From: a virus
Length of the DNA stretch: 64,000 nucleotides
Strand: one strand, 5' to 3'
Virus record (IMG/VR): IMGVR_UViG_3300046028_006919
Span: 1-64,000 of that record
The position numbers and the translations under genes were made by a program. Position 1 is the first letter of the stretch, and the number at the start of each line of letters is the position of its first letter. The notes under the pieces are model-generated. The model searched no databases. It saw nothing but the letters and a program-made list of their open reading frames with translations, and was not told the DNA's origin. Below are positions 20,028 to 37,157 of this stretch, one piece after another.

Positions 20028-20568
20028 AGAAATCGCGTGATGTAGGAAATTGCTCCCTGTGTTTACTAATCAATTCTTTGTACTCCTCCAGCGGTTTAAC
20101 CTCATCTCGTTTGAAAATATACATACCTTCACCGCCATAACCTGGTTTTGCATATAGCTTATCAGGATTCTCATTGCACACTGGATAACGCAAATCAAAA
20201 TCATGCGCATAACCATTAATGTGAGATAAACTTGTATCACTCAATTCAGCAAATTTTTTCTTGCTAGTAGTAACACATAACAATTGTAATTCAACTCCCC
20301 TGTGATATGTGGTAAGCCCATACGTCTTATGCTTCTTGGTTAACGGCTGTTTAAAACCAAATGCTTCAATACCTTGAACATAGTCAATAACTTCATTCTC
20401 CTTACATATTTTGATAGCGTCAGTAAATTTACTTGCACTACCTACAGTCATTCCAAGTACCGTATCTTGAAAGATAGTATACTTATCCAGCTGTGGGTGA
20501 TTTTGCTCTTGTATAAAACATCCTTTGAACCACCACTCACCAACCTCTATTTGAAACGGTTTATTCAT
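20002..20568 (-). CDS. Hypothetical protein
   Basis: 188-aa ORF with promoter. Confidence 0.65.
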   Translation of the reverse strand: MNKPFQIEVGEWWFKGCFIQEQNHPQLDKYTIFQDTVLGMTVGSASKFTDAIKICKENEVIDYVQGIEAFGFKQPLTKKHKTYGLTTYHRGVELQLLCVTTSKKKFAELSDTSLSHINGYAHDFDLRYPVCNENPDKLYAKPGYGGEGMYIFKRDEVKPLEEYKELISKHREQFPTSRDFYESQRQQN

Positions 20569-20715
20569 AATTATTATTCTTTAATTGTTTAACAGTACAA
20601 AGATAATACTTTATTTTAATATACCAAACTTTTTAATAAAAAAAATTAGGGTACCAGAAAAACTAGCACCCAAAGTCTGCCGCCACTCAATTATAGTTTT
20701 CGAAACTCATTTAAT

Positions 20716-21516
20716 TTATTCACCCATTACAAGCTCTTCATTCTTGATAAATTCATAGGTAACAACCGTATTAGAAACTTTAACAATAAAGTCATTCTCA
20801 CTATAATCATTTTTACCTTTGCTACCTGCACCTGTAAGATTTTTATAATGCAATCCAACAACAACATTTTGCTTGTCTTTAAACCTTAAATCCGTTTCAT
20901 CACCATTGATAACCTCAAAACCCATATACGTTTTTGGCAATGCTTGATTTTTATTCAATCCAAACACAACCGCAACATTAAAACCACGCTTCAATAACTC
21001 CAAAGATTTTCCATGATTATTTTCAGAACGTGAAAACGTTAAATGATAATTAGAATAGTTAACTTTGTCAAATCTTAAATGATTTTTTGTATAATCATAA
21101 AATTGTACACTTGGAAACAACTCGAATATATTCTTATCGTCAACAACCTTAAATTTCTCAAATGGAATATCACTAGTACCATTTAATCTAATTGCAATAT
21201 CCCACTTAGAACTATGCAATCTAACAATAGTCTCAATTTCACTCTTCAATTGTAACATGAAATTTTTTCTATCAGCCAAATAATATTCTGTCTTGTTTAA
21301 TTTACCAGCTTGAACACCAGTAAATCTAGCAGCACCGCTACCAAATAAACAAGCCTTGGCACAACCCTCTGTAGCATGACTACATAAATTTATTCCCTTG
21401 GAATTTTGTGTGTGTGGGGCTAAATACAATATAGCAGTCTTAACACCCAATTTTTCACCCTTAACAGTCTTCGCATTCTTAAAGCTCAATAGCTTTTTTG
21501 GTACATTGTAACTCAT
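20716..21516 (-). CDS. Phage Gp88-like protein (Cys-cluster, radical-SAM-like)
   Basis: NLCSHATEGCAKACL, IRLNGTSDI, FYDYTK, NYHLTFSRSE and NGDETDLRF motifs. Confidence 0.7.
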   Translation of the reverse strand: MSYNVPKKLLSFKNAKTVKGEKLGVKTAILYLAPHTQNSKGINLCSHATEGCAKACLFGSGAARFTGVQAGKLNKTEYYLADRKNFMLQLKSEIETIVRLHSSKWDIAIRLNGTSDIPFEKFKVVDDKNIFELFPSVQFYDYTKNHLRFDKVNYSNYHLTFSRSENNHGKSLELLKRGFNVAVVFGLNKNQALPKTYMGFEVINGDETDLRFKDKQNVVVGLHYKNLTGAGSKGKNDYSENDFIVKVSNTVVTYEFIKNEELVMGE

Positions 21517-21605
21517 AATAATAAATGTTTAATTGTTTAACAGTGCAAAGATATAACAATATTTTAAACCTGCAAACTTTTTTACAATTATTTTTAAATT
21601 ATTTT

Positions 21606-21881
21606 TTACATCCAACCTTGTTTCACTATTTCTGGCCTGCCGTTTACCATGGACCAATGCTCAAACCATTCTCCCCATTCCCCGCGGCGATGACGATATA
21701 CACACACTTCATTGTCATTGGATATTTCTAACAGGTCCCTCATCCGACGCTTTACTTCAGCATAGGTACCAAAGCTTTGTTGCAGCTTGCCGTTGGATAT
21801 CTTGAAATTATTCTCATCCGAATAATTCCTAACCACATTTACATACACACTAGGTTTAAAACTTCTGGCCATAATAAACAT
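21606..21881 (-). CDS. Hypothetical protein
   Basis: 91-aa ORF (likely start MARSF) with promoter. Confidence 0.6.
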   Translation of the reverse strand: MFIMARSFKPSVYVNVVRNYSDENNFKISNGKLQQSFGTYAEVKRRMRDLLEISNDNEVCVYRHRRGEWGEWFEHWSMVNGRPEIVKQGWM

Positions 21882-22177
21882 TATTTAATATTAGGACGCA
21901 AAGATAATACATATATTTGTAACCACCAAATTTATTTCATTTACTTTAAATAATCCTTAACTCTTCAGGTCCCTATTGCAACATCCAAAAAATCTTCGAA
22001 TCTTTGCAGCATGATTCTAACCCACATATATCCCATCCTATTATGATGGAGTCTCATCCCAGCAGCATGCACACCCGCGTAGCGGGCCCAGACACAAATG
22101 TGTACATAGGGAAAATATTTTTTAAGTAGTATTTACTTTTTGTGTCATATTACACATATTTATAATAAAACTGTAAT

Positions 22178-22606
22178 ATGAAATACAATGAAAAGAAAAG
22201 ATTGCAATTAGGTCTAAGAAGACTTTATACTGGGGAGGCGCCTAGCAAAGAGTTATTAAATTTAATAGGTACCGATAAGGATACCTTTGTTAACCATGTT
22301 AACGCTTATAGATTGTCTGGGATGACGGATGAGAATTTTGGGAAAGAATGGACACTGGACCATATAGTACCAGTAGATATCTTTGACATTTCTGATGAGC
22401 AGCAATTAAAGCTTTGTTATAACTATCATAACATAATGCCCATGTTTCTAAATGACAATAGAATAAAAGGTGCGAGCTCGCACTTCAGCTTGATTAAATT
22501 AAACCACATGAAAAATAACCCTAAACTAAACAATGAGATGGTCAATAAATTAATCACCGAGTGCGAACAACACAACGATAAAATATACGCGAAATACCTA
22601 GTTTAA
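22178..22606 (+). CDS. HNH endonuclease-like protein
   Basis: GMTDENFGKEWTLDHIVP...CYNYHNIMPM..NDNRIKG; on the strand opposite the region; ATATTTAT motif upstream. Confidence 0.7.
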   Translation: MKYNEKKRLQLGLRRLYTGEAPSKELLNLIGTDKDTFVNHVNAYRLSGMTDENFGKEWTLDHIVPVDIFDISDEQQLKLCYNYHNIMPMFLNDNRIKGASSHFSLIKLNHMKNNPKLNNEMVNKLITECEQHNDKIYAKYLV

Positions 22607-22834
22607 AAATTTTCTGGAGAAAAAGTTGTGAGAGTAGATGAAGCATATAAAGCTTTCTATACTTTTCTAATACTATATAGTTTACCACTATCTACCACCC
22701 TTTCCCACCATTTACCATTTTATGAATCATTTTAAGGCCTGATTTCTTTTAAAATGATATCATATACCTATTTTTTGTTATTTGCCCTTAAAAAGCTCAT
22801 ACGGGCTTGTAGGTGTACTTATATTATATATAGA

Positions 22835-22854
22835 ATGTACACAAATGTGTACAT
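22835..22854. repeat. Palindromic motif copy 6 (perfect 9-bp arms)
   Basis: ATGTACACA-AA-TGTGTACAT. Confidence 0.8.
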
Positions 22855-23158
22855 ACAAGTTATATTATTCTTCTATATTAAAAAGATAATCAACAATAAT
22901 ATATATACATCCAAGTAATGTTATTATAGGAATAGTTATTGGTCTAAGTATTTTTCTCATGTGTCATAATCTTATTTGTTTTTAAATTGTTCAGGATATA
23001 AAATATTATATCTTCTAGTAATACACCATTTAGCATACATTAAAGGAATGCCCCAGAACTTATCTAATACTGGTTTTACAAATCTTTGCCCTTTATAATC
23101 TCCACTTAATAAATAACTACCATAGCTATAATCGTGGTCTATGTTCCATTTTATTATT

Positions 23159-24181
23159 TCATTCATAATCCTTTTTCTTTTTATATTGTTCAAACCATAC
23201 TTCAAAACTTTCATATACTGGTGGCATATTCTTTTCAAAGATTAATGCTTGTCTTGATTGCTTAAATGCTTCTTTTAAATCTTCCTCGCTATACCTTCTC
23301 TCTTGTTGTGAGATACCAGCATCATACCCTTCACTAAATGTATTAATGTTTTCAAGTTCACATTTACATCTTTCATCTAATCTAATACTATCTTCATCAA
23401 GTTTGTCTTGCTCTTGTTGCCATTTAGCACCAAACACACTTCCTCTAACATAAGCATCTACTTCATCTCCATAATAAGATAATTGAGCTTGTTTTAGAGC
23501 AGCTTCTTCAAGTGTTTCAACTATCTTAATTTTAGAGGCTATTTCTTTAGCATCATGTAAATTATCATAATTGAATTGTTGCTTTTGTGCCTCTTCAAGA
23601 GTAGTTTCTTGTTGAGGTTCTTCAGGTCCGCAATCACAAGTTGTAGTATGACCACAGTAGCATTTTGTTTGTTCATACAGTCCTAACTCTTCATCTGATT
23701 TCATTATATCAATTAAATGTTGTTTAGGTTCTTCACTTGGAATTACAACTCTATATTCCTTCTTAACATTGTAAGCAGGCATTGTCCAATTAATCTCAAC
23801 ATCCTCACAACTTGGATTCTTAACAAACCATTCTAAAAACTCATCATCAATAGCTTGTACACCATTTTTGATTAAGTCTTGGTCTGTAGTCATTATAATT
23901 TTTTTACACATATTTCCATTGTTCATATATGTGTGGAACTTTCCAGCAGCAATAGTATCTTTGTTAATATAGATTGGTGAAAATATATGTCTTGTTTTAT
24001 TGTAAATATCAATAAAATATAAACCAATTGAATATTCTGTAACTATTTCATCAGAAGTGATGTAGATGTTTTTACATTGACTTGAACGAACATTACCACT
24101 ATATAAATCTAATTTTTTAGTGGTTGAGTTATATACTAACCTACTTGGTTTATCTGTTGGTAATATGTGTATGTTTTTCAT
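23159..24181 (-). CDS. Modular phage hypothetical protein with repeated ETLEEA / GAKWQQE / YSEEDL segments
   Basis: MKNIHILPTDKPSRL...CKKIIMTTDQDLIKNGVQAIDDEFLEWFVKNPSCE...; internal short repeats. Confidence 0.7.
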   Translation of the reverse strand: MKNIHILPTDKPSRLVYNSTTKKLDLYSGNVRSSQCKNIYITSDEIVTEYSIGLYFIDIYNKTRHIFSPIYINKDTIAAGKFHTYMNNGNMCKKIIMTTDQDLIKNGVQAIDDEFLEWFVKNPSCEDVEINWTMPAYNVKKEYRVVIPSEEPKQHLIDIMKSDEELGLYEQTKCYCGHTTTCDCGPEEPQQETTLEEAQKQQFNYDNLHDAKEIASKIKIVETLEEAALKQAQLSYYGDEVDAYVRGSVFGAKWQQEQDKLDEDSIRLDERCKCELENINTFSEGYDAGISQQERRYSEEDLKEAFKQSRQALIFEKNMPPVYESFEVWFEQYKKKKDYE

Positions 24182-24366
24182 AAACAACTAATTGTTACTA
24201 TATTATTATCGTAATCATAATGTACGTTTTTCACATCATAACTTTTGCTATCATGTGTAAATCTTTCTCCTTCTCTTGGAATTATTTTCCAAAGAGATTT
24301 AACCTTTATTTTCTCAGTAGTATAATCTCCTACTATTTTACTGTGAATTTTAAAAACTATTTTCAT
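24178..24366 (-). CDS. Hypothetical protein flanked by 46-bp direct repeats
   Basis: 62-aa ORF between repeats at 24138-24183 and 24367-24412. Confidence 0.6.
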   Translation of the reverse strand: MKIVFKIHSKIVGDYTTEKIKVKSLWKIIPREGERFTHDSKSYDVKNVHYDYDNNIVTISCL

Positions 24367-24406
24367 AATCTACTTGGTTTAGGTGTTGGTAATACGTGTA
24401 TGTTTT

Positions 24407-24625
24407 TCATAATTTATATTTTTTATATTCTCCTTGTTTATAATAATACAGTACATCATCGTGTTTTCTGAACACAACATCATCAGGACAGTAGTATATA
24501 GTATCTCTAACCAATATTTTCTTATTGATAATAGTGTATTTTACTTGGTTAATTGTTATTGATGATTTTCTTATACAGATTGTAGATTGAAACAGTATTA
24601 GTAACAAGAGTGATAGGTTAATCAC
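24407..24625 (-). CDS. Hypothetical secreted protein
   Basis: Hydrophobic N-terminus. Confidence 0.45.
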   Translation of the reverse strand: MINLSLLLLILFQSTICIRKSSITINQVKYTIINKKILVRDTIYYCPDDVVFRKHDDVLYYYKQGEYKKYKL

Positions 24626-24627
24626 TA

Positions 24628-25014
24628 TTATTCTTTATGAAATTCAACTAAATATCCTTTTGCAATCAGCACTCTTAAACACTTATCATCTTCATACAAT
24701 TGAAGCATCACTGTTTTACCTTCTTCTGTTAAACATTCTATTAATTGATAATTCATACCATTTTCTGATACACCTGTAGTAACATCTCCTATTTGATAAT
24801 AAGTGTATGTGTTACCATTTGGAAAATAGAATTTAACTTCTGATTTTCCTTCAGGGTTAAACACGACAGTGGTTTCTTTATACACCCATTCACCTACTAC
24901 ATCATCTTCTTTTGATATCATAGATGTGTATTTTTTTACAAAGGTTGAATTCTCTTGTGCAATACATGCAAAGCTGCTCAATAGTAGTAGAGCTCCTAAT
25001 AGTAATTTTTTCAT
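24628..25014 (-). CDS. Hypothetical secreted protein
   Basis: Signal peptide MKKLLLGALLLLSSFACIA-QE. Confidence 0.65.
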   Translation of the reverse strand: MKKLLLGALLLLSSFACIAQENSTFVKKYTSMISKEDDVVGEWVYKETTVVFNPEGKSEVKFYFPNGNTYTYYQIGDVTTGVSENGMNYQLIECLTEEGKTVMLQLYEDDKCLRVLIAKGYLVEFHKE

Positions 25015-25238
25015 AATAGTTTTTCTATTTGGTTGGTTTTTGTATTAAACAGCAAATTATCACCCACGTATTCGTATAGGGTTCCGTTTCTCTCAATGGT
25101 TTTGCCATGTTTTTTTGCTTTGGTTATTTCTTTGAGTGTTGTTGATGTATCTTCACACCAATATCTTTTGGGTTGTTTTGCCATGATTTATTTTGTATTA
25201 TGGGACAAATATACCACATTGTTTTTATATATGCAAAT

Positions 25239-25415
25239 TTATCTTGCATAATATATTTGGTCTTTTAAATTACTTTCATGATAATAATACCTTACCCATA
25301 AACCAAATTGTTCACCATTGATATAATTACCCATATTGCATAGATTCCCATTTGTCCAATACCATTCCCACAATCCGTGGCGTTGGCTTCTTCTATGTGG
25401 TCTTTTATCTTGCAT
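25239..25415 (-). CDS. MORN-variant mini-protein unit 20
   Basis: MQDKRPH...HGLWEWY...YYAR*. Confidence 0.75.
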   Translation of the reverse strand: MQDKRPHRRSQRHGLWEWYWTNGNLCNMGNYINGEQFGLWVRYYYHESNLKDQIYYAR

Positions 25416-25584
25416 AGTAATCAAATTCTATTCCAAGTTCATCAAAAAAAAGATATTCTACCAACCCTTTTATTTCGTTGTTTACATAATTACATTTATA
25501 GTAGAATTCTCCATTGGTTTGGTGCCAATATCCTTGTGCTCTTGCTTGTCCATCTGTTTGGTTTATTTTGTTATCTTGCTGCAT
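25405..25584 (-). CDS. MORN-variant mini-protein unit 19
   Basis: MQQDNKIN...QGYW...YYAR*. Confidence 0.75.
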   Translation of the reverse strand: MQQDNKINQTDGQARAQGYWHQTNGEFYYKCNYVNNEIKGLVEYLFFDELGIEFDYYAR

Positions 25585-25741
25585 ATTGTTTACGTATTTT
25601 ATTATTAAAATTGTGTTCAAAATATCCATACCATGCTCCGTTTATATAGTTGATTCTAAAAGATGGTTGACCGTTTCCATGGTATATTTCCCAATAACCA
25701 TGCGCTTCACCTTGTTCGTTAAGTGGTTTTTTATCTTGCAT
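25571..25741 (-). CDS. MORN-variant mini-protein unit 18 (absent from ORF track, 56 aa)
   Basis: MQDKKPLNEQGEAHGYWEIYHGNGQPSF...QYAAR*. Confidence 0.75.
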   Translation of the reverse strand: MQDKKPLNEQGEAHGYWEIYHGNGQPSFRINYINGAWYGYFEHNFNNKIRKQYAAR

Positions 25742-25979
25742 AATAACTTTTACCTATTGTTTTAATTTGTGGATAATTAGATTCACAGTATCCTATGAAA
25801 TCATTATTGACTATATTTACTTTATAATCTAATACGCCATCATCAAAATATTTTTCATAAAAACCACATATTTCTCCGTTACTGTATACTGTTTTAAAAG
25901 ATGGTTGACCGTTTTCATGATATATTTCCCAATAACCATGTCGTTCACCTTGTTCGTTAAGTGTGTTTTTATCTTGCAT
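25731..25979 (-). CDS. MORN-variant mini-protein unit 17
   Basis: MQDKNTLNEQGERHGYWEIYHENGQPSF...YYAR*. Confidence 0.8.
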   Translation of the reverse strand: MQDKNTLNEQGERHGYWEIYHENGQPSFKTVYSNGEICGFYEKYFDDGVLDYKVNIVNNDFIGYCESNYPQIKTIGKSYYAR

Positions 25980-26139
25980 TATATATTAAAATAAGAGGGT
26001 TAGAAGATTTAATTTCTTCAAGACCTAATATAACACCATTGACATAGTTTCGTTTAAAATAACGTAGTTTATCGCTACTGTATTGTTCCCAATAGCCATT
26101 TCGTTGACCTCGTTCGTTATATGGTTCATTATCTGGCAT
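25969..26139 (-). CDS. MORN-variant mini-protein unit 16 (absent from ORF track, 56 aa)
   Basis: MPDNEPYNERGQRNGYWEQY...YVNG...YNAR*. Confidence 0.7.
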   Translation of the reverse strand: MPDNEPYNERGQRNGYWEQYSSDKLRYFKRNYVNGVILGLEEIKSSNPLILIYNAR

Positions 26140-26314
26140 AGTATGTTTTGGTTATTCGTTTGGTATATAAATTTTTTGCTTCACGGAAACCACATCGTTC
26201 ACCGTTAACATAGTTTGTTCTAGAACATAGACCACCGTCATGCCAATATAGAATCCATAGTCCGTGTCGTTCGCCTTGTGCGTTATGTGGTTCTTGTCCT
26301 TCTCTATGGTACAT
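26129..26314 (-). CDS. MORN-variant mini-protein unit 15
   Basis: MYHREGQEPHNAQGERHGLW...YYAR*. Confidence 0.75.
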   Translation of the reverse strand: MYHREGQEPHNAQGERHGLWILYWHDGGLCSRTNYVNGERCGFREAKNLYTKRITKTYYAR

Positions 26315-26495
26315 GATAAAATATTTCTCCGTTACCCCATTTTTCATGTCCGTATTCCACACCGTTGACATAATGACATTCATACCAGAAAGTACCATCT
26401 ATCTTGTGGTATATTACCCAATGACCATGACACTGTTTTTTTTCGTTTAGTGGCGCTAAGCTTTCTTCATTCATATATCTTATTGAGTCCTGCAT
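26304..26495 (-). CDS. MORN-variant mini-protein unit 14 (own promoter)
   Basis: MQDSIRY...CHGHW...YVNG...YHVP*. Confidence 0.7.
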   Translation of the reverse strand: MQDSIRYMNEESLAPLNEKKQCHGHWVIYHKIDGTFWYECHYVNGVEYGHEKWGNGEIFYHVP

Positions 26496-26519
26496 AATGC
26501 AAATATACAATTTATTGTT

Positions 26520-26690
26520 TTATCTTGCAATAAAACTTTTATTTAGATAAGAATTGTTTTGTGTTATCCAATAACCATATACACGACCATGGATATAATA
26601 TCCTTTGCTATATACATTATCAGCGTAAATGGTTTCCCAATAACCGTGACAGTCATTATCTTTGGTGACTTGATTTATTTTATTTTGCAT
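26520..26690 (-). CDS. MORN-variant mini-protein unit 13 (absent from ORF track, 56 aa)
   Basis: MQNKINQ...CHGYWETIY...FIAR*. Confidence 0.7.
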   Translation of the reverse strand: MQNKINQVTKDNDCHGYWETIYADNVYSKGYYIHGRVYGYWITQNNSYLNKSFIAR

Positions 26691-26844
26691 GGTATTCGTT
26701 AGAGATTAATTTTGTTTCTCTAATATATTGATAGTGGCCGCATATGGTGCCACCAATATATGTTTGTTTATACGATGACAAGCTCCATTGGCATGACCAA
26801 TCACCGTGTCGTTTTCCGTTCTTGTGACTTAGTTTATCTGGCAT
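26680..26844 (-). CDS. MORN-variant mini-protein unit 12
   Basis: MPDKLSHKNGKRHGDW...YHAK*. Confidence 0.7.
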   Translation of the reverse strand: MPDKLSHKNGKRHGDWSCQWSLSSYKQTYIGGTICGHYQYIRETKLISNEYHAK

Positions 26845-26998
26845 AATATTTTCTAAAAAGTTTTTCATTCTCACACAATTCCCATAGACCAAATCTAATA
26901 CCGTTTAGGTAATGACCCTCAAAATAACCTTCTTTAAGAACCAAAGACCATGGGCCATGATGTTGTCCTTTATCGTTAAAATTTCGTTTACCTCGCAT
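26834..26998 (-). CDS. MORN-variant mini-protein unit 11
   Basis: MRGKRNFNDKGQHHGPW...YYAR*. Confidence 0.75.
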   Translation of the reverse strand: MRGKRNFNDKGQHHGPWSLVLKEGYFEGHYLNGIRFGLWELCENEKLFRKYYAR

Positions 26999-27158
26999 AA
27001 TATTCTCTATCTTCTCTTCCATGCCAATCAAAGAAATAGTATCCGTAACGGACTCCGTTGATGTAATTGGTTATATACCATAAACTATCGCTGCACCAAT
27101 ATTTTTCCCAATACCCATGTTTTTGACCTAATTCATTATATGGCGTTTTATCTAGCAT
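26988..27158 (-). CDS. MORN-variant mini-protein unit 10
   Basis: MLDKTPYNELGQKHGYW...YYAR*. Confidence 0.75.
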   Translation of the reverse strand: MLDKTPYNELGQKHGYWEKYWCSDSLWYITNYINGVRYGYYFFDWHGREDREYYAR

Positions 27159-27324
27159 AGTATTCTTTTTTTGATGAACTGTTAGACCAGTCCCAATATT
27201 CAAAACAACCATATTCTAAACCGTTTATGAAGTATCCGTTAAACCATAGTCTATCGTTGCTGTGGTGTATTATCCAATACCCGTGGGCTTGTTTTTTTTC
27301 GTTATGTGGTTTTTTATCTTGCAT
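27148..27324 (-). CDS. MORN-variant mini-protein unit 9 (absent from ORF track, 58 aa)
   Basis: MQDKKPHNEKKQAHGYWIIH...FINGLEYG...EYYAR*. Confidence 0.75.
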   Translation of the reverse strand: MQDKKPHNEKKQAHGYWIIHHSNDRLWFNGYFINGLEYGCFEYWDWSNSSSKKEYYAR

Positions 27325-27562
27325 AGTATCGATTATCTAGTTGATTATCACCAAAGTGGTGTTCACCATACCCATGAAATTGACTATTTATGTAATTGAT
27401 TATGGAGATTAACTTACCGCTATTCCAATATCTTTCAATCTTACCGAAAGCGTAGCCATTTACATATAACCCTTTAAATTCCAGAACACCATTAGAGGCG
27501 TAATAAACTTCCCAATATCCGTGTTTTTGACCTTCTTTATTTGTTGGTTTTTTATCTTGCAT
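27314..27562 (-). CDS. MORN-variant mini-protein unit 8
   Basis: MQDKKPTNKEGQKHGYW...YYAR*. Confidence 0.8.
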   Translation of the reverse strand: MQDKKPTNKEGQKHGYWEVYYASNGVLEFKGLYVNGYAFGKIERYWNSGKLISIINYINSQFHGYGEHHFGDNQLDNRYYAR

Positions 27563-27731
27563 AATATTCTAATACTAACAATTTACCGTTATGGTTAAAA
27601 TTTTGATATAACCCGAATGCGTTTCCATTAATATAATGTAGCTTATACCATAGAGTACCATACATAGAATGGTAAGCTTCCCATAATCCATGTGCTTGTC
27701 TATTTTTGTTAAATGGTTTTTTATCTTGCAT
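27552..27731 (-). CDS. MORN-variant mini-protein unit 7 (absent from ORF track, 59 aa)
   Basis: MQDKKPFNKNRQAHGLWEAY...YINGNAFG...EYYAR*. Confidence 0.75.
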   Translation of the reverse strand: MQDKKPFNKNRQAHGLWEAYHSMYGTLWYKLHYINGNAFGLYQNFNHNGKLLVLEYYAR

Positions 27732-27900
27732 AATATCTATTTTGGTCTAAATTACCGTTTGGGTCATATACCTTGCTATGACCAAATCTAAATCCGTTAA
27801 TGAAAAATGAATGCCATCTTATGTTGTTGTTACTCCATAAGTTTATCCATTCTCCATGACGTTCTTCATTAGCGTTACGTAGATTAATTTTATCTTTCAT
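27721..27900 (-). CDS. MORN-variant mini-protein unit 6 (absent from ORF track, 59 aa)
   Basis: MKDKINLRNANEERHGEW...FINGFRFG...RYYAR*. Confidence 0.75.
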   Translation of the reverse strand: MKDKINLRNANEERHGEWINLWSNNNIRWHSFFINGFRFGHSKVYDPNGNLDQNRYYAR

Positions 27901-27903
27901 AAT

Positions 27904-27932
27904 AAAAAAAGGGTAGCTTTTGGCTACCCTTT
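27904..27932 (-). terminator. Intrinsic terminator
   Basis: AAAGGGTAGC-CAAAA-GCTACCCTTTTTTT on the minus strand after 27941. Confidence 0.75.
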
Positions 27933-27940
27933 GGTGTTTG

Positions 27941-28174
27941 TTAGTCCCAAGCGTTTTGTAGCTTTTTGGTTACTGGGTTCAACTCTTGTTGAACGTACTT
28001 GATAACGTGAGGTGCTTCTATTGCTATGGTCCCGTGTTCTCCGTGCAAAACTTGGCTGTTTTTACCAGCTTTGATTTTAAGGATGTTCTCATCGATTTTT
28101 TCAACTTCTACAACGTTAGTCATTGTGTGTGTGTTTGTACTTGGTTCAAGCACGATAGTCTTCTGATTTCCCAT
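27941..28174 (-). CDS. His-containing partner of DUF6745-like protein (paralog of 11700-11966)
   Basis: VLEPSTNTH...VLHGEHGTI...VQQELNPVTKKLQNAWD; own promoter at ~28209-28244. Confidence 0.65.
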   Translation of the reverse strand: MGNQKTIVLEPSTNTHTMTNVVEVEKIDENILKIKAGKNSQVLHGEHGTIAIEAPHVIKYVQQELNPVTKKLQNAWD

Positions 28175-28245
28175 GTTTTTATTTTTAAATGGTTTGTTAT
28201 AATTACAATACAAATATACTACTTAGTTTTTAATTGTGCAAATTT

Positions 28246-28425
28246 TTATCGACAATAATAACTTTTTATTTTTGGTCGACCTTCAAACCAGCAAGTTATT
28301 TCACTATATCCATATGCTACATCGTTAACATAGTGCGAAGTTTCCCATGGTCGCCCATCATCACGATAGTCTTGAAATGGTCCATGTAGTTGTCCTTTTT
28401 CGTTTCTGGTATACTTATCTCGCAT
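28246..28425 (-). CDS. MORN-variant mini-protein unit 5
   Basis: MRDKYTRNEKGQLHGPF...YYCR*. Confidence 0.75.
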   Translation of the reverse strand: MRDKYTRNEKGQLHGPFQDYRDDGRPWETSHYVNDVAYGYSEITCWFEGRPKIKSYYCR

Positions 28426-28591
28426 AGTATTCTTCATCTTCAATATCGTTATTTTTGTTTCTCCATATAAAGTACCCATACTTTACACCATTAAGATAAT
28501 AACCTATATAGAAAGCAACATCGTTGGACCAATATTCTTCCCAATGTCCGTGTTTTCGTTGTAATTCGTTATAGGGTCTTTTATCTAGCAT
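28415..28591 (-). CDS. MORN-variant mini-protein unit 4
   Basis: MLDKRPYNELQRKHGHW...YYAR*. Confidence 0.75.
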   Translation of the reverse strand: MLDKRPYNELQRKHGHWEEYWSNDVAFYIGYYLNGVKYGYFIWRNKNNDIEDEEYYAR

Positions 28592-28820
28592 AATATTTTT
28601 CATCAATTTCTTTGGTGAATTTTGTATAAATAAATTGTTTAGAATAACCATGAGCTCTATCATTGATGTATGATTCCATAAAGTTAAAACCACCATCAGC
28701 AAAATGTTTTATCCATTGTCCGTGACGTTGCCCTTTTTTGTTTCTTGGTATAACATCATTTTGATAAACATATTTTCTAGGTTCTCCATTTTCGTTTTTT
28801 GGTTCTAAATTATCTGGCAT
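28581..28820 (-). CDS. MORN-variant mini-protein unit 3
   Basis: MPDNLEPK...NKKGQRHGQW...YYAR*. Confidence 0.75.
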   Translation of the reverse strand: MPDNLEPKNENGEPRKYVYQNDVIPRNKKGQRHGQWIKHFADGGFNFMESYINDRAHGYSKQFIYTKFTKEIDEKYYAR

Positions 28821-29004
28821 AATAATTATTATAATTTCCATCAATAGAACCTCTACCAAATCTCAAATGATGTCCAAATCGTTCACCGTTGATATATGGT
28901 CCAGAGAACCATAGCTCACCATTTGGTGAATATACTTCCCAATACCCATGACGACGATTTAGTTTGTTCTTGGGTCTCTTGCATTTTGGTTGTTTATATT
29001 GCAT
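28810..29004 (-). CDS. MORN-variant mini-protein unit 2
   Basis: MQYKQPK...RRHGYWEVY...YYAR*. Confidence 0.75.
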   Translation of the reverse strand: MQYKQPKCKRPKNKLNRRHGYWEVYSPNGELWFSGPYINGERFGHHLRFGRGSIDGNYNNYYAR

Positions 29005-29167
29005 AATAATGTTTACCTTTTGATTTTAAACCTAAATAATAACATTCATAGTACCCATGTCGAACAGAACCAACAAAAAAAGCTTTGTACCATAGTTGAC
29101 CACCATTGTAGTATAGTTCTCTATAGAAGCTTTTATCTGTTAATATTATTGTTTTATTTTTTTCCAT
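28994..29167 (-). CDS. MORN-variant mini-protein unit 1
   Basis: MEKNK...GGQLWYK...RHGYYE...YYAI*. Confidence 0.7.
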   Translation of the reverse strand: MEKNKTIILTDKSFYRELYYNGGQLWYKAFFVGSVRHGYYECYYLGLKSKGKHYYAI

Positions 29168-29232
29168 AGTTTTAAAAAGAAAACCACACACCAATTACTA
29201 GCGTGTGGTTTTCAAAGGGAATAAAAAATTTA

Positions 29233-30006
29233 TTATGATTGTGCTACTAACAGACCAAAGTATTGTTCTTTGGTTAGTGATACCATTTCACCTTCTGGTT
29301 TCACATCTTCATCCATTTCAGTAAGCAAGATATCACCTTGGCGTTTCAATGCTTTGATATGTGGAATGATGTTTTTGTGAACGACAAACGTTGATGCGAT
29401 TGCGGTAAGTGGGTCGTCTTTGTATTGGTCGTCAATCCATAACCAATGTTCTTTGTTGGTTGATGTGCACCAGCATTTTACTGCGTATAGTGATTCATCA
29501 AGACCTAACTTCTTGCCCTCGATTTCGTGAGTTTCGTAGATGTTGTCATATTCTTCAACGCCAGTGAAATTACCCTCAGCATCATATTGTCTATGATTAA
29601 CTTTGACACCATCAGTTTTGATTCTTTTGGCACCCAACTCATTAATCATTTGAGGGATATCGATTGACGAGAATACAAGAGCTTGAAACTCTCTACCATC
29701 TAACTCAAAAGATTCTTTGAAAGTAAACGGTTCCACTGTATCATACATTTCAGCAAGGCTGTCGAAGAATTTTACGGTTTTATCGTAATCCTCTTCTGAT
29801 ACTTCTTTAAGACCAGCGATTTTATGTTCTGGGTATCCGTTAAGAAAAATGTTTTTCTTTACATTGATGAAACGATTCATAAATCTTTCATAGTTTGTAT
29901 GAACACCTTTAAGGTATTTTACCAATTCAGTTGGGGTACAACCTACCATTTGTTCTGTGTCAGTTTCGAAGTAGACACCATTGAATGCTGTGAAAATAAT
30001 TTTCAT
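29233..30006 (-). CDS. DUF6745-like protein with C-terminal RQGD segment (paralog of 9435-10130)
   Basis: YDNIYETH...AVKCWCTSTNKEHWLWI...AIASTF...KRQGDILL...LTKEQYFGLLVAQS. Confidence 0.6.
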   Translation of the reverse strand: MKIIFTAFNGVYFETDTEQMVGCTPTELVKYLKGVHTNYERFMNRFINVKKNIFLNGYPEHKIAGLKEVSEEDYDKTVKFFDSLAEMYDTVEPFTFKESFELDGREFQALVFSSIDIPQMINELGAKRIKTDGVKVNHRQYDAEGNFTGVEEYDNIYETHEIEGKKLGLDESLYAVKCWCTSTNKEHWLWIDDQYKDDPLTAIASTFVVHKNIIPHIKALKRQGDILLTEMDEDVKPEGEMVSLTKEQYFGLLVAQS

Positions 30007-30068
30007 ATGTTATTGTTATTTAATTACTGTGCAAATATACTATATTGTTTTTATATGTGCAAACTTTT

Positions 30069-30524
30069 TTAACTATTTTTTATCAACTCAGCAATAAGTT
30101 TGCTTTTTTCCAAGATTGATAAGTCTTTTTTCTCTAACAATTTAATGGTTGTGTAAACCTTATATTGTTCTTCATCAAATTCAAAATTACCAGTTTCACT
30201 TAACCAATCAATTTTGGTTTGAATCAAATCAATTTTAGATTTCAACGAACTTTTTTCAACATCTAATTCTTCCAAAGTTATTGTTTTATCAATTTCATAA
30301 TCATAAACCCAACCAGAATCTCTACCGCAAATACTTTTGATATAATTTTTATTGCATTCAAAAGTTGAGGTGATGATAAACTCTTCGTTTTTGCCCATGT
30401 GAATGTTATTTGATGTTTGTTTACCCACTGGGGTACATTTTTTTAATTTAATTGTTTTTTCCATTTTTATTTTTACGTTAAAAAATTTAATAATATTGCG
30501 TTTTATTTTATTGTATGATTTCAT
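30069..30524 (-). CDS. Hypothetical protein
   Basis: ORF in operon. Confidence 0.55.
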   Translation of the reverse strand: MKSYNKIKRNIIKFFNVKIKMEKTIKLKKCTPVGKQTSNNIHMGKNEEFIITSTFECNKNYIKSICGRDSGWVYDYEIDKTITLEELDVEKSSLKSKIDLIQTKIDWLSETGNFEFDEEQYKVYTTIKLLEKKDLSILEKSKLIAELIKNS

Positions 30525-30808
30525 TACTCTATTGTTATTTTTGTTTTGTCATGGTATTGGTGAGCATCGTAGCCATCGATTCCATTTTTTTGGAAATCAG
30601 CATCGTTTAACCAATATACTTTACCATCATCTTTTGCACATTTAATGATGTGTCTGGAACCTGTGTTCCATATGGTATAATTGCCTTTGGGTAGTCTTTC
30701 AACGGTACCCATGTCGTTTTTATCTCTAGGAGCGTTGCAGTTAACTAGTGTTATCATCATTCCCAACGAGAATAGGAACACTATTGCAAATGTTTTAATT
30801 TCTTTCAT
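30524..30808 (-). CDS. Putative lipoprotein
   Basis: Signal peptide ending LVNC. Confidence 0.5.
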   Translation of the reverse strand: MKEIKTFAIVFLFSLGMMITLVNCNAPRDKNDMGTVERLPKGNYTIWNTGSRHIIKCAKDDGKVYWLNDADFQKNGIDGYDAHQYHDKTKITIE

Positions 30809-31619
30809 TATAATCGATTGTTTATAGTTAACACTTCAACCAACTCTGGTCTTGTTTTAGTTCTACATTGTGAGCATGTGCATTTTTCCCCTTCTCGGAA
30901 TCTACCACAACCAACATTGAATGTATAACCTTCTTTGATAGTTTCATCAAACCACCCAAAATCAATCCAGCGTTGTAAAGTTTTAGGGTTGCTTATTCTT
31001 GTTGTTCCTGAATAGTTTTCCATTATTGTTTTCTTATCATATTAATGATTTCTTGATTGCTTAAATAGTCTACTGAGCGAACATCGTCACCAATTAGTGC
31101 GTGGCTTCTACCCATGTTGTATGCTCTGTTTTTGATTGGTGAACCAAAATCATAGTCTAAGTTGTTATCCAATTCATCCATGAATCCATGCATGTAAAAA
31201 CCCAACAGTTCTTCATCTGAAACTGAGTTCGCTTGCTCAATTGATTCAAGCAAGCGTTCTTTGTTTTTGTCAGACGACATCAAGTGTTCAGTATCATCTA
31301 ATTCTTCAGCCATGGCTTAATTGTTTTTAAGGTAATGGTCGATGATTCTTTTAGACAATTTAATACAGTAGTTTACGTCTTCTTCTTCAATTGACCCAGT
31401 GGTTTCTTTTACCTTGCTCAAATGGTATTGAGTTGCTTGGTGGTTGAAGTCCATTAGTTGAACTAGATTGTCTTTTTGTTCTGACAGTTTCTCATTCTTT
31501 GAAACAAGGTTGTTGATATCTCTAGTGAGTCTATCTCTAAGGTCTTGTTCTGTTGGTTTTGGTTTATGTTTACCATTACCTCTTCTATCACTTTTTCTTT
31601 GGTTAGGATTCTCGCCCAT
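30808..31619 (-). other. Three small hypothetical genes (30808-31023, 31023-31313, 31317-31619)
   Basis: Abutting ORFs behind a promoter at ~31640-31670. Confidence 0.55.
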
Positions 31620-31676
31620 AATTATTATTTTTAAAGTTATACAAATATACTAATAAAAAATCAATCTTGCAATTTT

Positions 31677-34166
31677 TTATATTTTTTTATTGTCAATATA
31701 TTCACCAAACAGCATCATAATGTAACCAACAAATGGTGTTGGCAACGCCCACAAGAAGTTTAACCATGAGGTCCAAGTTGTTCCTTGTGTTATTAATGTA
31801 TATAATTGAAGAAACATACACGTTGCAAATGTAATACAAACTATCGTTAGTAGTACTAGAAACGCTCTAATCATTTTATTTTCCATGCTTTATGTATTTA
31901 CGTTTTAATTTAGTTTGTTGTTTGTTTAACACTATGATGTAACGTTGTCCGATACTGGTTTTATACACTTGGTATCTTACATCATTTTCATAATACCATT
32001 CGTTGGTATAAGAATGTTCATGTATTCTTTTTTCAACATCACAGGACAAAGATAACCAGAATAAACATAAGAATAAAAATATTTTTGTTAACAAATTGTT
32101 AATTCTCATATTAATAAAAATCAATTTTGTTTGCGAACATTTGAACCACAACGTTTTCTGGAATCTCATATTCTTCGATTTCGTTTGCTATGTCGTTTAT
32201 GTGACCAGCGATTCTGGTCAACGCTTTGTTGATAGGAACTGAATACTCTATGATACCTCTAAGACCATCAACGACAGTATCAAGGTCTAGGTCTTTAAAC
32301 TCTTTGGTTTCATTATCGTAATTGTCGTAGACTTCGTAGTGGATAACAGACTCAGGTTCATCTTTTGGAACCAAGTTGTATTGAATAGCAATTGGTCTAT
32401 TTGAGTTTTCAAGGTCAAATTCAATAAACATTGATACTATCAATATACCTAGATAAACTTCTATGGTACAATCACCATCAAAAGAAAATCTAAATTGTTC
32501 GTCGTTTAATTTATTGACTATGTCGTTAATCGTTGTCATTTTAGTTTGGTGTTATTTACCGTTAATACATTTAATATCCTTTACAACAAAATTAGTAAAC
32601 GCGTTAATGAAGAAAGACTCCTCAGCATCTTTAAGTTGGTAAGTAAAGCTAGTCCCATCAAGACCGTTTACATATTTGATTGAAGTTAGTGGATAATTTT
32701 TAAGAACATAAATGTCTGATACACTTGCATAGAAATTGGTAATTCCACCATATTCATCAATTATGTTGTATGCTTTTAACATAACTGTTTTTCTACCAGA
32801 AAAACGAATTATTAATTTATCAGTTTTGCTAGATTTTCCAATATTAAGTTTAATAACCGAAAAACCATTTGGTATTGGGTTGATTGTACTAGTTAGGTAT
32901 GTTGGTACCATAGCAAACCACTTAGTTTTAGTTTCATTGGAACAAATAAGCCCAGTTTTTGGTTGAAAAGTAGAACTATCCAAACAGTATTCAACAACAA
33001 ATTCTGATTGTTGTGAGTTGATATTTTGCGATACAAGTAATATCGTTAATAATGTGAATATTTTTTTCATAATTTAAAGTTGAGGGAATTCTAATAAGAA
33101 TTCAACACTATTCATATCATTCAAGGTAATCAACTTTGTTACAGTTGATGTATCTTGTTTGATGACGATGTGTTGAAAACGTTCGTATACTTTGTAGTCG
33201 ATAGCCTCAAACTCATGAATAAACCATCCATGGTCTTGTAGTTTTTGAATATCGTCTTTCGTAAACCAACGCCATAGTTGTTCTAGACTTTCGGTTGCAG
33301 ATAACCAACCCACAATTTCTGGGTCGAAATCCATAAGTAATTCATTGTTGGCACAGAAATTTAAATCCTCATGGATAAGCCCTGTGAAGTTACCTTTGTA
33401 ATCGTACCAAAGGCCTTGTAATGTGTGTTTATGACACACTCTGTAGAATTTCTTTTTCATAGTTAGTCGATTTCGACATATTGTAACTGATAAGAACATC
33501 CAAAGATGACATCTTGAATCAATACAAGTCTAAGTTCTAATTTTTTCATACCGTTTTTTGTTAATCTATAATATGCTGACGCTTCGTAAGTCATTGACTC
33601 ACCGCCCAACATAGATAAAAGTTTATTGTTGCTCATTGTTACTTTATTTAATAATGTAATCGTTGCCATACCATGAACTGGTTCTAACCCACATCACTTG
33701 TGGTTTATTCAAACTATCTTTCACATTTAGCTTCCAAATATATTCACTTTTGTGAACATAATTGAAAGGACTACCAATATTGGTCAATTGCCAATCTTCA
33801 TCAACTATAGTATAGTTATGGTCAGTAGTCCACTGATGAATTTCTTTTTGTTGGTTATTGAAATGGTTTACGTTAATTAACCACGCAATACATATAGCGA
33901 TAGGTATTAACACAAACACCAAATAAATTTTTATATTTTTCATTTTATTCGTCTTCTGGGTCCAATTCAGAACCTTCTTCGTAGGTTATTGGTGCATATT
34001 TTTGTTGAAACTCACGTTCATAGTCGTGTAGTGCTTTAAGTGCGGCACCACTATTCTGCCAATCTTCTGGAAAAGGTTTAGCTTTAGAACCAAAGCTTAC
34101 GATTTGTTGAGCAATTACTTTACCTGATTTGCTTCTTATAGTAAATTTGAAATCCTTTTTTGACAT
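31677..34166 (-). other. Operon of small hypothetical/membrane genes (31677, 31876, 32111, 32552, 33074, 33463, 33644, 33945)
   Basis: Overlapping or abutting ORFs; several with signal peptides or TM segments. Confidence 0.55.
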
Positions 34167-34417
34167 TTTAAATTGTTTTACAGTACAAAGATACTAATTA
34201 ATTTTGGATTACCAAATTATTTATCATCTTTTTCGTGTTCAACACCAAATATTTCCACTAATAGTTCAAAAAGACCAACAATAATAGCCATAGCTATTGC
34301 AAATAACAAAATTATAGCTTCTGGTGATATGATTAGTATTATTAGTAATATCAATAACCAAATCATAGTGTATCGTTTTTAAAGTATAACCAGTAAGGTT
34401 TATTTTCACTCATAATA

Positions 34418-34963: not shown

Positions 34964-34971
34964 ATTATTAT

Positions 34972-37097: not shown

Positions 37098-37157
37098 ATA
37101 TACAACTTATTTTTTAACTACCAAATTTTTTTTTAAAAAAATTGAGGGCCAATAAAA

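Follow-up and report, generated by a model that had tools for sequence, protein, structure and literature searches.

Why does a phage carry twenty versions of one very small gene, most of them beginning inside the end of the gene before, and how might such a chain be read and used? The array lies at 29167..25239 on the minus strand of the window, i.e. the whole 64,000-nt stretch of DNA analysed, in a large lake-water phage. The phage is a jumbo phage (about 300-360 kb) and the array a real multigene family. Its 20 ORFs of 54-82 aa (Table 1) are arranged in three sub-arrays, U1-U5, U6-U13 and U14-U20, separated by a 345-nt gap with an unrelated 77-aa gene and by a 24-nt gap, respectively. Within the sub-arrays the genes are chained, i.e. 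the start of the next gene sits within the last four codons of the preceding one and the reading frame shifts by +1 at each of the 17 overlapping junctions, 16 of which measure 11 nt and one (U18/U19) 14 nt. Thirteen of the 20 units end in YYAR, the others in the variants given in Table 1. Recounting thus returned the same paralogous ORFs, overlaps and tails as the original prediction.

Table 1. Features of the array and its surroundings, in descending order of position in the window
Feature	Positions	Strand	Length (aa)	Tail	Remarks
Promoter, Bacteroidota-type, TTTGCACA-N-TAGTATATTTG	30032..30063	-			ahead of the 257-aa gene preceding the array
Upstream flanking gene	29233..30006	-	257		syntenic anchor in relatives; function unassigned; 98% aa identity to L011
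Terminator-like hairpin and T-run	29179..29213	-			ends 12 nt ahead of U1 start codon
U1	28994..29167	-	57	YYAI	most divergent unit, without HGxW; leave-one-out E = 5e-6; orthologs P0020, P0026, P0027, P0033
U2	28810..29004	-	64	YYAR	overlaps U1 by 11 nt
U3	28581..28820	-	79	YYAR	N-terminal part long
U4	28415..28591	-	58	YYAR	L011 ortholog, dN/dS 0.46
U5	28246..28425	-	59	YYCR	closes sub-array 1; tail without ATG; L011 ortholog ends FYFCR, dN/dS 0.41
Promoter, same type as TTTGCACA-N-TAGTATATTTG	28211..28242	-			ahead of 77-aa gene
Non-MORN gene inside array	27941..28174	-	77		conserved; viral hypothetical-protein family; same position in L011 and L012
Terminator-like hairpin	27908..27932	-			T-run extends into U6 start codon
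U6	27721..27900	-	59	YYAR	opens sub-array 2; head MKDK; orthologs P0008, P0010, P0022
U7	27552..27731	-	59	YYAR	ortholog P0149
U8	27314..27562	-	82	YYAR	three-repeat unit
U9	27148..27324	-	58	YYAR	dN/dS 0.22
U10	26988..27158	-	56	YYAR	Arg codon AGG
U11	26834..26998	-	54	YYAR	ortholog in L099
U12	26680..26844	-	54	YHAK	L099 ortholog, dN/dS 0.78
U13	26520..26690	-	56	FIAR	closes sub-array 2; tail without ATG; L099 ortholog ends FIAK, dN/dS 0.92
Weaker promoter-like site, TTGCAA-N17-TATATTTG	26500..26530	-			overlaps U13 tail, ahead of U14
U14	26304..26495	-	63	YHVP	stop TAG; 11-nt overlap retained; orthologs with tail FYHAL
U15	26129..26314	-	61	YYAR	supplies head of natural U15/U16 chimera
U16	25969..26139	-	56	YNAR	
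U17	25731..25979	-	82	YYAR	three-repeat unit
U18	25571..25741	-	56	YAAR	overlaps U19 by 14 nt; 66% identical to U17
U19	25405..25584	-	59	YYAR	
U20	25239..25415	-	58	YYAR	last unit; L011 ortholog 90% identical
Promoter of next transcription unit (57-aa gene)	25206..25237	-			sets downstream limit of array

After removal of four residues from each end, every one of the 20 units matches the profile of the other 19 (leave-one-out E = 5e-6 to 6e-18), and since the interiors alone suffice for this, the homology is not an artefact of the common ends. Mean pairwise identity is about 36% for whole units and 31% for the cores. Seven of the 20 match Pfam MORN_2 (PF07661) at E <= 0.01, none reaches the gathering score (best 26.8 vs 29.6 bits), and no unit has a match in PADLOC, PHROGs or NCBIfam. 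A search with the family profile gives 10,004 proteins at E <= 1e-3, and the best-scoring of these are mostly long proteins with 7-15 matched stretches each; P0001, the sole match with a precomputed Pfam entry, carries PF07661, and relatives bear the automatic JGI label 'YwqK antitoxin'. AlphaFold (AF2) models of U9 and U8 (pLDDT 93.7 and 92.7) contain four and six strands, respectively, with YY in the last strand and with the head segment and the tail strand as exposed sheet edges. When the U9 model was compared with known structures by VIA-align, the five top-ranking matches (Z 5.2-6.0) were without exception MORN proteins or the SET7/9 N-domain, with 1n6c superposing at an rmsd of 1.9 A over 56 residues; Foldseek likewise picked out SET7/9 (prob 0.99). 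Each unit is predicted from these models to be a sheet with a single layer of antiparallel strands, built from two or three MORN_2 hairpins, in which head (KKP) and tail (YYAR) would be half-repeats capping both sheet edges. Scaffold residues are kept (N8, H14-G15-x-W17, Y32-x-N34-G35, G39 and the YYAR tail in U9 numbering), variability is high in the strands and in the C-terminal hairpin, and the pI ranges from 4.6 to 10 across units. The original prediction of MORN variants with divergent interiors, i.e. diverged paralogs and not fragments of one gene, agrees with these intact, homologous interiors and with the confident MORN-type sheets obtained when the structure prediction it had proposed was run on U8 and U9.

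The junction is a 15-nt module, TAY-TAT-GCN-AGA-TAA, that appears to be dual-coding: it ends one protein with YYAR-stop and, in the +1 frame, opens the next gene at an ATG 11 nt upstream of the stop codon's end. Junctions are identical at 10-15 of the 15 positions, as compared with about 31% amino acid identity of the interiors. Ala is kept via four synonymous codons (GCA, GCC, GCT or GCG; counts 27/4/4/3), by which residue 2 of the next protein becomes Q, P, L or R. The start-forming codon, from which the following ATG takes its AT, reads NAT in 37 cases and NAC in none, whereas the preceding Tyr codon is TAT 23 times and TAC 16 times (Fisher p = 4.7e-6) and interior Tyr codons are divided 166:45 (p = 4e-4), both p-values being optimistic because the orthologous junctions in the 37:0 set are not independent data points; in the window alone the counts are 17:0 vs 10:6 (p = 0.007). 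Only U5 and U13, both terminal in their sub-arrays, and their orthologs lack the tail ATG, and terminal units without a following gene still keep an aromatic/aliphatic-small-R/K tail. In U20 the tail ATG opens only an 8-codon remnant (MQDKFAYI), and the remnant head QDKFAYI follows the last unit in the window and in L011 alike. Taken together, the codon usage supports selection for the peptide tail as well as for the start codon embedded in it, as had been proposed in preference to selection on an exact DNA site. The tail is also conserved in homologs elsewhere: it occurs in 14 of 22 small vs 1 of 128 large MORN_2 representatives, MQDK head and YYAR tail being specific to small proteins. L012 has a 208-aa gene, not of the MORN type, that is joined to the chain via the same 11-nt overlap.

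The host is probably a member of the Bacteroidota, which as a group use no Shine-Dalgarno (SD) sequence for initiation or reinitiation (Huber et al. 2019, PMC6728339). The motif TTTG-N17-21-TAnnTTTG was counted 47 times on the minus strand vs 5 times on the plus strand, and the start contexts of 69 ORFs show an SD-like motif ahead of only one, A at -3 in 68% and an A-rich stretch from -11 to -14. We consider it probable, with considerable room for doubt, that the array encodes separately translated mini-proteins that are coupled by termination-reinitiation and form a birth-and-death panel of putative binders. Polycistronic mRNAs would start at host-type promoters (TTTG-N-TAnnTTTG); U1-U5 and U6-U13 sit directly behind terminator-like hairpins without a promoter of their own, so that their expression presumably depends on read-through. 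At each junction, A at -3 would come from the first Tyr codon and an A-rich leader from the charged pre-tail residues; with the next ATG 11 nt back, a ribosome terminating on TAA would thus cover the next start and could reinitiate without an SD sequence. Because this type of host does not rely on SD sequences, internal cistrons of 54-82 codons could be translated in succession, yielding 20 separate mini-proteins. Same-strand stop/start overlap in an SD-independent context is shared with known termination-reinitiation pairs (ATGA, TGATG; PMC6728339, PMC10666635). The overlap here is, however, 11 nt (once 14) instead of 4 or 1, it recurs as many as eight times running inside a conserved peptide tail, and the coupling is inferred. 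Backward reinitiation over 11 nt exceeds the tested -4/-1 overlaps, and de novo initiation at each ATG fits the sequence equally well. As YY lies in the last edge strand of the models, a plain C-terminal capping half-repeat, which would also carry the start context of the next gene (A at -3, T at -1/-2), accounts for the tail with no need of a role as docking, assembly or degron tag.

The number of units is neither fixed nor reduced to a single copy in related phages, so that the array is expandable as originally suggested. At the same locus, related jumbo phages have about 5, 12 or 20 units: a complete relative of 362 kb carries one array only, in which 12 units were counted and one of them is interrupted by an in-frame TAA, about 5 units occur in relatives whose flanking gene is 78% identical, and in L099 the orthologs of U11 and U12 are separated by 3 additional units. 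In a lake metagenome contig (X14) 166 nt are skipped in register, which creates a U15/U16 chimera of the same design as protein P0011, and P0065 is a natural in-frame fusion of two units. These sequences show that birth and death, together with unequal recombination among the units, shape the family. For eight orthologous units dN/dS is 0.22-0.92 (pairwise, small samples; all <1), as compared with 0.04, 0.03 and 0.19 for the neighbouring 257-aa, 77-aa and 57-aa genes at similar dS; the raised values may stem from relaxed constraint and not from diversifying selection.

Could the units instead belong together as parts of one ordered heteromeric complex, in which the tail strand of each pairs with the head segment of the next into a long MORN-like sheet, with translational coupling giving order and stoichiometry? 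One gene gives way to the next at a hairpin turn, YY and the HGxW beyond the junction are 15-16 residues apart vs the canonical MORN_2 spacing of 17, both partners are exposed edges in the models, the fusion in P0065 is in frame and, according to PMC10666635, overlapping genes that are translationally coupled often code for partners in a heteromeric complex. We nevertheless regard such an assembly as unlikely, since unit number and order vary freely in close relatives (5, 12, 20; indels, pseudo-unit), which fits poorly with an ordered complex, K-K-P heads and Arg-COOH tails seem typical of pairing-averse edge strands, and the non-MORN gene of L012 has the same junction. That gene, joined precisely at the junction, may equally be cited for a junction that is mainly a DNA-level recombination module, i.e. 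microhomology for the gain, loss and shuffling of units as cassettes, with YYAR/MQDK peptides and overlap as by-products. The conservation of the junction relative to the interiors, the unit-level indels and the remnant head past the last unit fit this, but the sole mapped breakpoint (X14, P0011) falls in the HGxW region and not at the junction, no recombinase was recognised among the neighbouring genes scanned, and the third bases of Ala and of the first Tyr vary while amino acids and ATG are kept, which indicates selection on coding and start codon. We thus judge a recombination module to be quite improbable.

Two further readings appear very improbable, to a similar degree. Programmed +1 frameshifting or other recoding at each junction, giving one long MORN protein, would agree with the +1 frame and with the near-canonical MORN spacing of concatenated units. 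However, TAT-GCN-AGA-TAA has no slippery or re-pairing codon and its +1-frame codon shifts with the Ala wobble, the ATG, which frameshifting would not need, occurs at all junctions inside the chains and disappears only from units without a gene behind them, and promoters, terminators and an unrelated gene separate the sub-arrays. Non-functional DNA, i.e. a decayed long MORN gene or dead duplicates, is suggested by one L011 unit with an in-frame stop and by short remnants at array ends, but all 20 units of the window are intact, intact orthologs with dN/dS < 1 exist in several contigs, scaffold residues, start and stop codons are conserved and the models are confident.

What, then, might separately translated mini-proteins do? 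Given their fast evolution and the unit number differing between relatives, the array looks like a changeable panel of putative binders. By analogy with MORN_2/YwqK immunity proteins and polyimmunity loci, we infer small intracellular binders that may neutralise toxins or defence effectors of the host or of competitors. YwqK has about 150-170 aa and 5-7 repeats. The phage-borne units share its repeat signature (HGxWxxY…G…YxNGxxxG) and a predicted beta-hairpin repeat sheet, but have only 2-3 repeats in 54-82 aa, score below the Pfam gathering threshold and have no recognised toxin next to them, and the YYAR tail and MQDK head are specific to small proteins; a scan of 22 ORFs within about 10 kb recognised neither toxin nor defence genes. 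In B. subtilis, YwqK is the antitoxin/immunity partner of the LXG deaminase-like toxin YwqJ (PMC8321402). Homogeneous polyimmunity loci (Zhang et al. 2012, PMC3482391), as far as the accessible text goes, are likewise tandem, co-oriented distant paralogs with minimal spacing, presumably polycistronic, differing in number and make-up between close strains, with one locus per genome and no toxin inside; they are, however, bacterial, that text neither names MORN/YwqK nor describes strict 11-nt chaining, and immunity here is an analogy. No published description of such an array was found in the literature searched.

Eukaryotic MORN proteins (SET7/9 N-domain, MORN1, radial-spoke/central-apparatus proteins) provide the best structural matches of U9, although sequence similarity is marginal (E = 0.12) and these domains are parts of large proteins with unrelated biology. 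'Genomic accordions', the expanding multigene families of large DNA viruses, include K3L amplification in poxviruses, the MGFs of ASFV and the MORN/ankyrin repeat-protein expansions seen in amoebal giant viruses. The present array differs from the accordions in its prokaryotic host, mini-genes of <85 codons and probably chained translation, with no link to a known host factor made, but resembles them in its copy-number-variable tandem paralogs, putative binder-type proteins, large viral genome and fast evolution.

On the minus strand, from 29167 down to 25239, a walk through three reading frames yields 20 ORFs of 54-82 aa (U1-U20 in gene order) in three blocks, and all countable statements of the original prediction, i.e. 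the number of ORFs, the overlaps, the tails and the variation of the Ala codon, were recovered. Within the blocks 16 stop/start overlaps measure exactly 11 nt and one (U18/U19) 14 nt, the reading frame stepping by +1 at each junction. Such same-strand overlaps are present at 17/17 in-chain junctions of the window and at 16/16 in three related loci, namely L011 (a complete related phage of 362 kb), L012 (a relative with a 78%-identical flank) and L099 (a metagenome contig of 1.4 kb). Thirteen units end in YYAR, and YYAI, YYCR, YHAK, FIAR, YHVP, YNAR and YAAR occur once each; all four Ala codons are used in the tails, so that residue 2 of the following protein is Q, P, L or R. The array is interrupted solely by a 77-aa non-MORN gene and has no toxin gene inside.

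Array blocks, neighbouring genes and putative transcription signals (window positions unless a related phage is named)
Feature	Position	Strand	Remark
Block 1, U1-U5	29167-28246	-	ORF walk
Block 2, U6-U13	27900-26520	-	ORF walk
Block 3, U14-U20	26495-25239	-	ORF walk
Embedded 77-aa gene	27941-28174	-	present in all three lineages
Embedded 77-aa gene, L011	9468-9701		
Embedded 77-aa gene, L012	9193-9426		
257-aa flanking gene	29233-30006	-	weak match, HAD domain of 'Swiss Army Knife' RNA-repair proteins (E = 0.015)
Neighbour gene	17503-18075	-	DUF4241 (E = 6e-11)
Neighbour gene	35672-36469	-	cREC_REC (E = 5e-21)
Promoter pattern	30063-30032	-	before 257-aa gene
Promoter pattern	28242-28211	-	before embedded 77-aa gene
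Promoter pattern	25237-25206	-	after array
Weaker promoter copy	26530-26500	-	before U14
Further promoter examples	21576-21546; 7541-7511	-	same pattern
Strong terminator-like hairpin	29213-29179	-	immediately before U1; T-run abuts ATG
Strong terminator-like hairpin	27932-27908	-	immediately before U6; T-run abuts ATG

The units had been described as paralogs with very divergent interiors, and both parts of this description stand. Mean pairwise identity is 36% for whole units and 31% for cores, the most alike pairs being U17/U18 (66%) and U4/U10 (62%), and neighbouring units are no more identical to each other than distant ones. Nevertheless, each unit, with four head and four tail residues cut, is recognised by a profile built from the remaining 19 (E = 5e-6 to 6e-18), identifying the units as true paralogs despite their divergence. 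Conservation is confined to columns N8, H14, G15, W17, Y32, N34, G35, G39 and Y55-Y56-A57-R58, with positions 40-54 and most strand faces being variable. The pI of the units ranges from 4.6 to 10.0, which rules out a uniformly acidic DNA mimic.

That the units are MORN_2/YwqK-like is borne out by profile homology and predicted fold, but not by the Pfam score: 0/20 units reach the MORN_2 gathering cut-off (29.6 bits; best unit 26.8 bits), as expected for only two or three diverged repeats per unit. MORN_2 (PF07661) is matched at E <= 0.01 by 7 of the 20 units, the other 13 having no match. A search of 1.84 billion representative proteins with the profile of the unit family (A1) returned 10,004 matches at E <= 1e-3 and 1,342 at <= 1e-10, with proteins of 400-1100 aa and 7-15 repeat stretches at the top. 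The best short match with a precomputed Pfam entry, P0001, carries PF07661 (E = 4e-19) and the JGI name 'YwqK antitoxin'. At the level of sequence profiles the units are homologous to bona fide MORN_2 proteins. Three-repeat relatives of 80-87 aa with YYAR-type tails occur in metagenomes (P0101, P0106, P0129, P0135 and others); PHROGs, PADLOC and NCBIfam gave no meaningful match for the units, the 77-aa gene or the 257-aa gene.

AlphaFold2 models of U8 and U9, built with family alignments, predict antiparallel β-hairpin sheets of the MORN type, in line with the proposed scaffold. U9 (58 aa; pLDDT 93.7) has four predicted strands (residues 15-20, 26-33, 36-44 and 51-56) and U8 (82 aa; pLDDT 92.7) six, the last spanning residues 74-80, so both tail Tyr residues fall within the final strand, at the sheet edge. 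At the N-terminus, the QDKKPxNExGQ segment forms β-bridges in the model (DSSP E at residues 2, 7 and 13) and, given the MORN repeat pattern, probably runs along strand 1; head and tail might be half-repeats capping the sheet. The top five VIA matches of the U9 model are all MORN-type (Z 5.2-6.0, rmsd 1.9-3.0 Å over 55-57 residues) and comprise a trypanosome flagellar MORN protein, the N-domain of SET7/9 and radial-spoke and central-apparatus MORN proteins, the scores being middling in absolute terms, as expected for a sheet of 58 residues. Foldseek likewise returned SET7/9 (prob 0.99), to which a sequence search of the PDB gave only marginal matches (E = 0.12).

The junction encodes a tail and a start at once. 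Pooled over 41 units from the window and the three related loci, the first tail Tyr is encoded by TAT 23 times and by TAC 16 times, whereas the following codon, whose AT opens the downstream ATG, is TAT 30, CAT 6, AAT 1 and NAC 0 times (Fisher, p = 4.7e-6 vs the preceding Tyr codon and p = 4e-4 vs interior Tyr codons); for the window alone the corresponding counts are 17:0 vs 10:6 (p = 0.007). Only U5, U13 and their orthologs have tails without this ATG (TAT/TTT-TGT, ATT-GCA), all of them last in sub-arrays. The tail Ala codon varies (GCA 27, GCC 4, GCT 4, GCG 3), the Arg codon of in-chain tails is always AGA or AGG, with CGA solely in terminal YYCR-type tails, and the stop is TAA in 39 units and TAG in 2. 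Heads that follow no unit lack QDK (U1 MEKN, L011 MENK, L012 MEEL, L099 MEEF), indicating that the MQDK head largely arises from reading the tail codons in the +1 frame. Terminal units still end in an aromatic, an aromatic or aliphatic, a small and an R/K residue. Moreover, among the top 150 family representatives a [YF]xA[RKN] C-terminus is found in 14 of 22 proteins of <= 130 aa vs 1 of 128 longer MORN_2 proteins, so the tail is conserved in homologs elsewhere. Codon counts and tail retention together argue for two coexisting constraints, on the peptide tail and on the start codon, in agreement with the proposal that selection acts on the tail and the overlap's start and not on an exact DNA site.

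Across the phage, initiation sites have A at -3 (68% of ORFs), T at -1/-2 and an A-rich stretch from -11 to -14, and the tail codons supply this usual context locally. SD-like motifs are almost absent ahead of the ORFs (1 of 69), and Bacteroidetes are reported to do without SD use in de novo initiation or reinitiation (PMC6728339). One 15-nt junction module would encode a predicted structural cap, stop, start and Kozak-like context together. A non-MORN 208-aa gene of L012 (9826-10452, plus strand; MQDKMKE…) has its start within a MORN unit's YYAR tail, the overlap again being 11 nt; here the junction module is apparently reused, coupling a foreign gene.

The window belongs to a 76-kb IMG/VR contig with an estimated completeness of 22%, and its nuclease most resembles those of uncultured phages of 630-640 kb. 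With the flanking 257-aa gene as query four IMG/VR contigs were found, and unit number and order, which the original prediction had singled out for comparison, are not those of a fixed single-copy arrangement (~5, 12 or 20 units). L011, whose flank is 98% identical, has the unit family at this locus only; its 12 units, all chained by 11 nt, include orthologs of U4, U5, U9 and U20 and several without counterpart in the window. In L011 one unit (9910-10086) has an in-frame TAA after 11 codons (MQDKEPTNLLG*) with the downstream junction intact, and the last unit is followed by a 28-aa remnant (11216-11302; MQDKLGY…YIAR). About 5 units, with other genes interspersed, are present in the three contigs whose flank is 78% identical, and in L099 orthologs of U11-U15 are accompanied by three extra units between U11 and U12.

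INPHARED gave no megablast match to window positions 20000-40000 and no tblastn match to U8, and related-locus searches led from P0135 only to the known relative and from P0106 to none. The double-junction DNA pattern was found in IMG/VR in the four related contigs only; at three-repeat spacing IMG/VR gave 10 matches, 0 with MORN units, and 13 matches in genome contigs, none with a MORN unit, are attributed to chance. In metagenomes L099 is the only true array among the matches listed. Of those listed, about 100 contigs from a single metagenome (loci L019-L098, Ga0126342_* contigs), often matched near their ends, encode no MORN unit; they contain an unrelated abundant repeat with TATGCNAGATAA at ~170-nt spacing.

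All or part of the stretch is present in 24 lake-water metagenome runs. In a contig from one of them (X14), 26095 is directly followed by 26262; the 166 nt between are missing and the U15 head is set in register on the U16 body, exactly the design of P0011 from the public collection; other metagenome contigs depart from the window sequence at 25920/25951. P0065 (108 aa) is an in-frame fusion in which residues 1-33 of a U13-like unit are followed by another unit from its residue 2 onwards, and both it and P0011 are evidently natural recombinants. For eight clear orthologous units, dN/dS (Nei-Gojobori) is 0.46 (U4), 0.41 (U5), 0.22 (U9), 0.78 (U12), 0.92 (U13), 0.39 (U14), 0.61 (U15) and 0.49 (U20), compared to 0.04, 0.03 and 0.19 at comparable dS for the 257-aa flank, the embedded 77-aa gene and a downstream 57-aa gene, i.e. 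at the protein level the array evolves 5-20x as fast as its neighbours. As all values lie below 1 and samples are small, they fit relaxed constraint and diversifying selection alike. Taken together, copy-number variation, chimeras and dN/dS point to a birth-and-death family with unequal in-register recombination.

Based on these findings we propose that the units are translated separately, the terminating ribosome reinitiating 11 nt upstream, and that the array may constitute a panel of small binders, by analogy with MORN_2/YwqK immunity proteins and homogeneous polyimmunity loci. Programmed frameshifting at the junctions, which would fuse the units, is unlikely, as there is no codon for re-pairing, the +1 codon is variable and the ATG is always present. 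Slippage of transcription on the A-run behind the stop would leave the TAA in place, a reassigned stop codon would be followed in the same frame by another stop within a few codons, and decay of the units is ruled out by intact orthologs and confident predicted folds. The idea that the junction is a cassette site at the DNA level is weakened by its wobble variation and by the mapped breakpoint lying inside units.

A different role for the chaining would be a split MORN super-sheet, in which the tail strand of one unit would pair with the head strand of its successor to complete a common hairpin, the array being a modular scaffold of variable composition with the ribosome passed from subunit to subunit by termination-reinitiation and modules swappable by recombination. 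As the gene boundary coincides with a hairpin turn and 15-16 residues separate YY from the next HGxW vs 17 in a canonical repeat, neighbours could pair tail to head; unit number and order change freely, however, and we consider such a sheet rather improbable.

The array joins known kinds, namely MORN_2 proteins, polyimmunity-like tandem paralogs and overlap-coupled genes; a literature search found no account of chained MORN mini-gene arrays. YwqK is a single protein with ~5-7 MORN_2 repeats, whereas the units have two or three each and no cognate LXG/deaminase toxin is recognised among the 22 ORFs searched within ~10 kb. The ywqJ-ywqK genes form a toxin-antitoxin pair (PMC8321402), and homogeneous polyimmunity loci are tandem, co-oriented, closely spaced, strain-variable and usually present once per genome (Zhang et al. 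2012, PMC3482391). Like the latter, the array has four or more tandem, co-oriented and closely spaced paralogs (here 20) without toxin genes between them, varies between strains in unit number and type, with variant haplotypes in lake metagenomes, and is the single such locus of the complete 362-kb genome. The members of these loci lie in bacterial genomes and belong to families with demonstrated immunity to delivered toxins; the array is phage-borne, its family kinship to YwqK is distant, and an immunity function is putative. With termination-reinitiation pairs it shares the same-strand stop/start overlap, although this measures 11 nt here instead of 4 or 1.

Should the units act as separate binders, the array would be a compact, naturally diversifying phage library of 54-82-residue β-sheet binders, a phage-side mirror of bacterial polyimmunity loci and a prokaryotic-virus counterpart of copy-number-variable host-interaction families in poxviruses, ASFV and giant viruses, and its members would be candidate counter-defence or toxin-neutralising proteins for Bacteroidota. 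It may also serve as a clean natural test bed for SD-independent reinitiation with an 11-nt backward step up to eight times per mRNA, and its units, at ~56 aa, could interest protein designers as a minimal self-contained MORN scaffold.

Both a promoter and a terminator of its own accompany the embedded 77-aa gene, which falls into viral 'hypothetical protein' clusters and shows strong purifying selection; it might act as an invariant partner of the changing units. Searches of 22 ORFs within ~10 kb (with Pfam or PHROGs, some with both, and a subset with PADLOC) revealed no toxin domain. The matches to DUF4241, to cREC_REC, a cyclic-phosphate-processing receiver domain, and to the HAD domain are together a hint that RNA repair or conflict may be a theme of this region.

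As U1-U5 and U6-U13 lie directly behind terminator-like hairpins, their expression would have to rely on read-through, which suggests that the first two sub-arrays are under read-through or antitermination control; among public runs no RNA run with the stretch is listed. The Bacteroidota sigma-A-type pattern TTTG-N17-21-TAnnTTTG has 47 copies on the gene strand of the window and 5 on the opposite strand, and TAnnTTTG alone occurs 190 times vs 114.5 expected. Copies of the full pattern fall into two sequence classes, TTTGGTRG…GTTATATCTTTG, dominant at 0-22 kb, and TTTGC/G…AGTATATTTG, dominant at 25-45 kb, which may correspond to two temporal classes.
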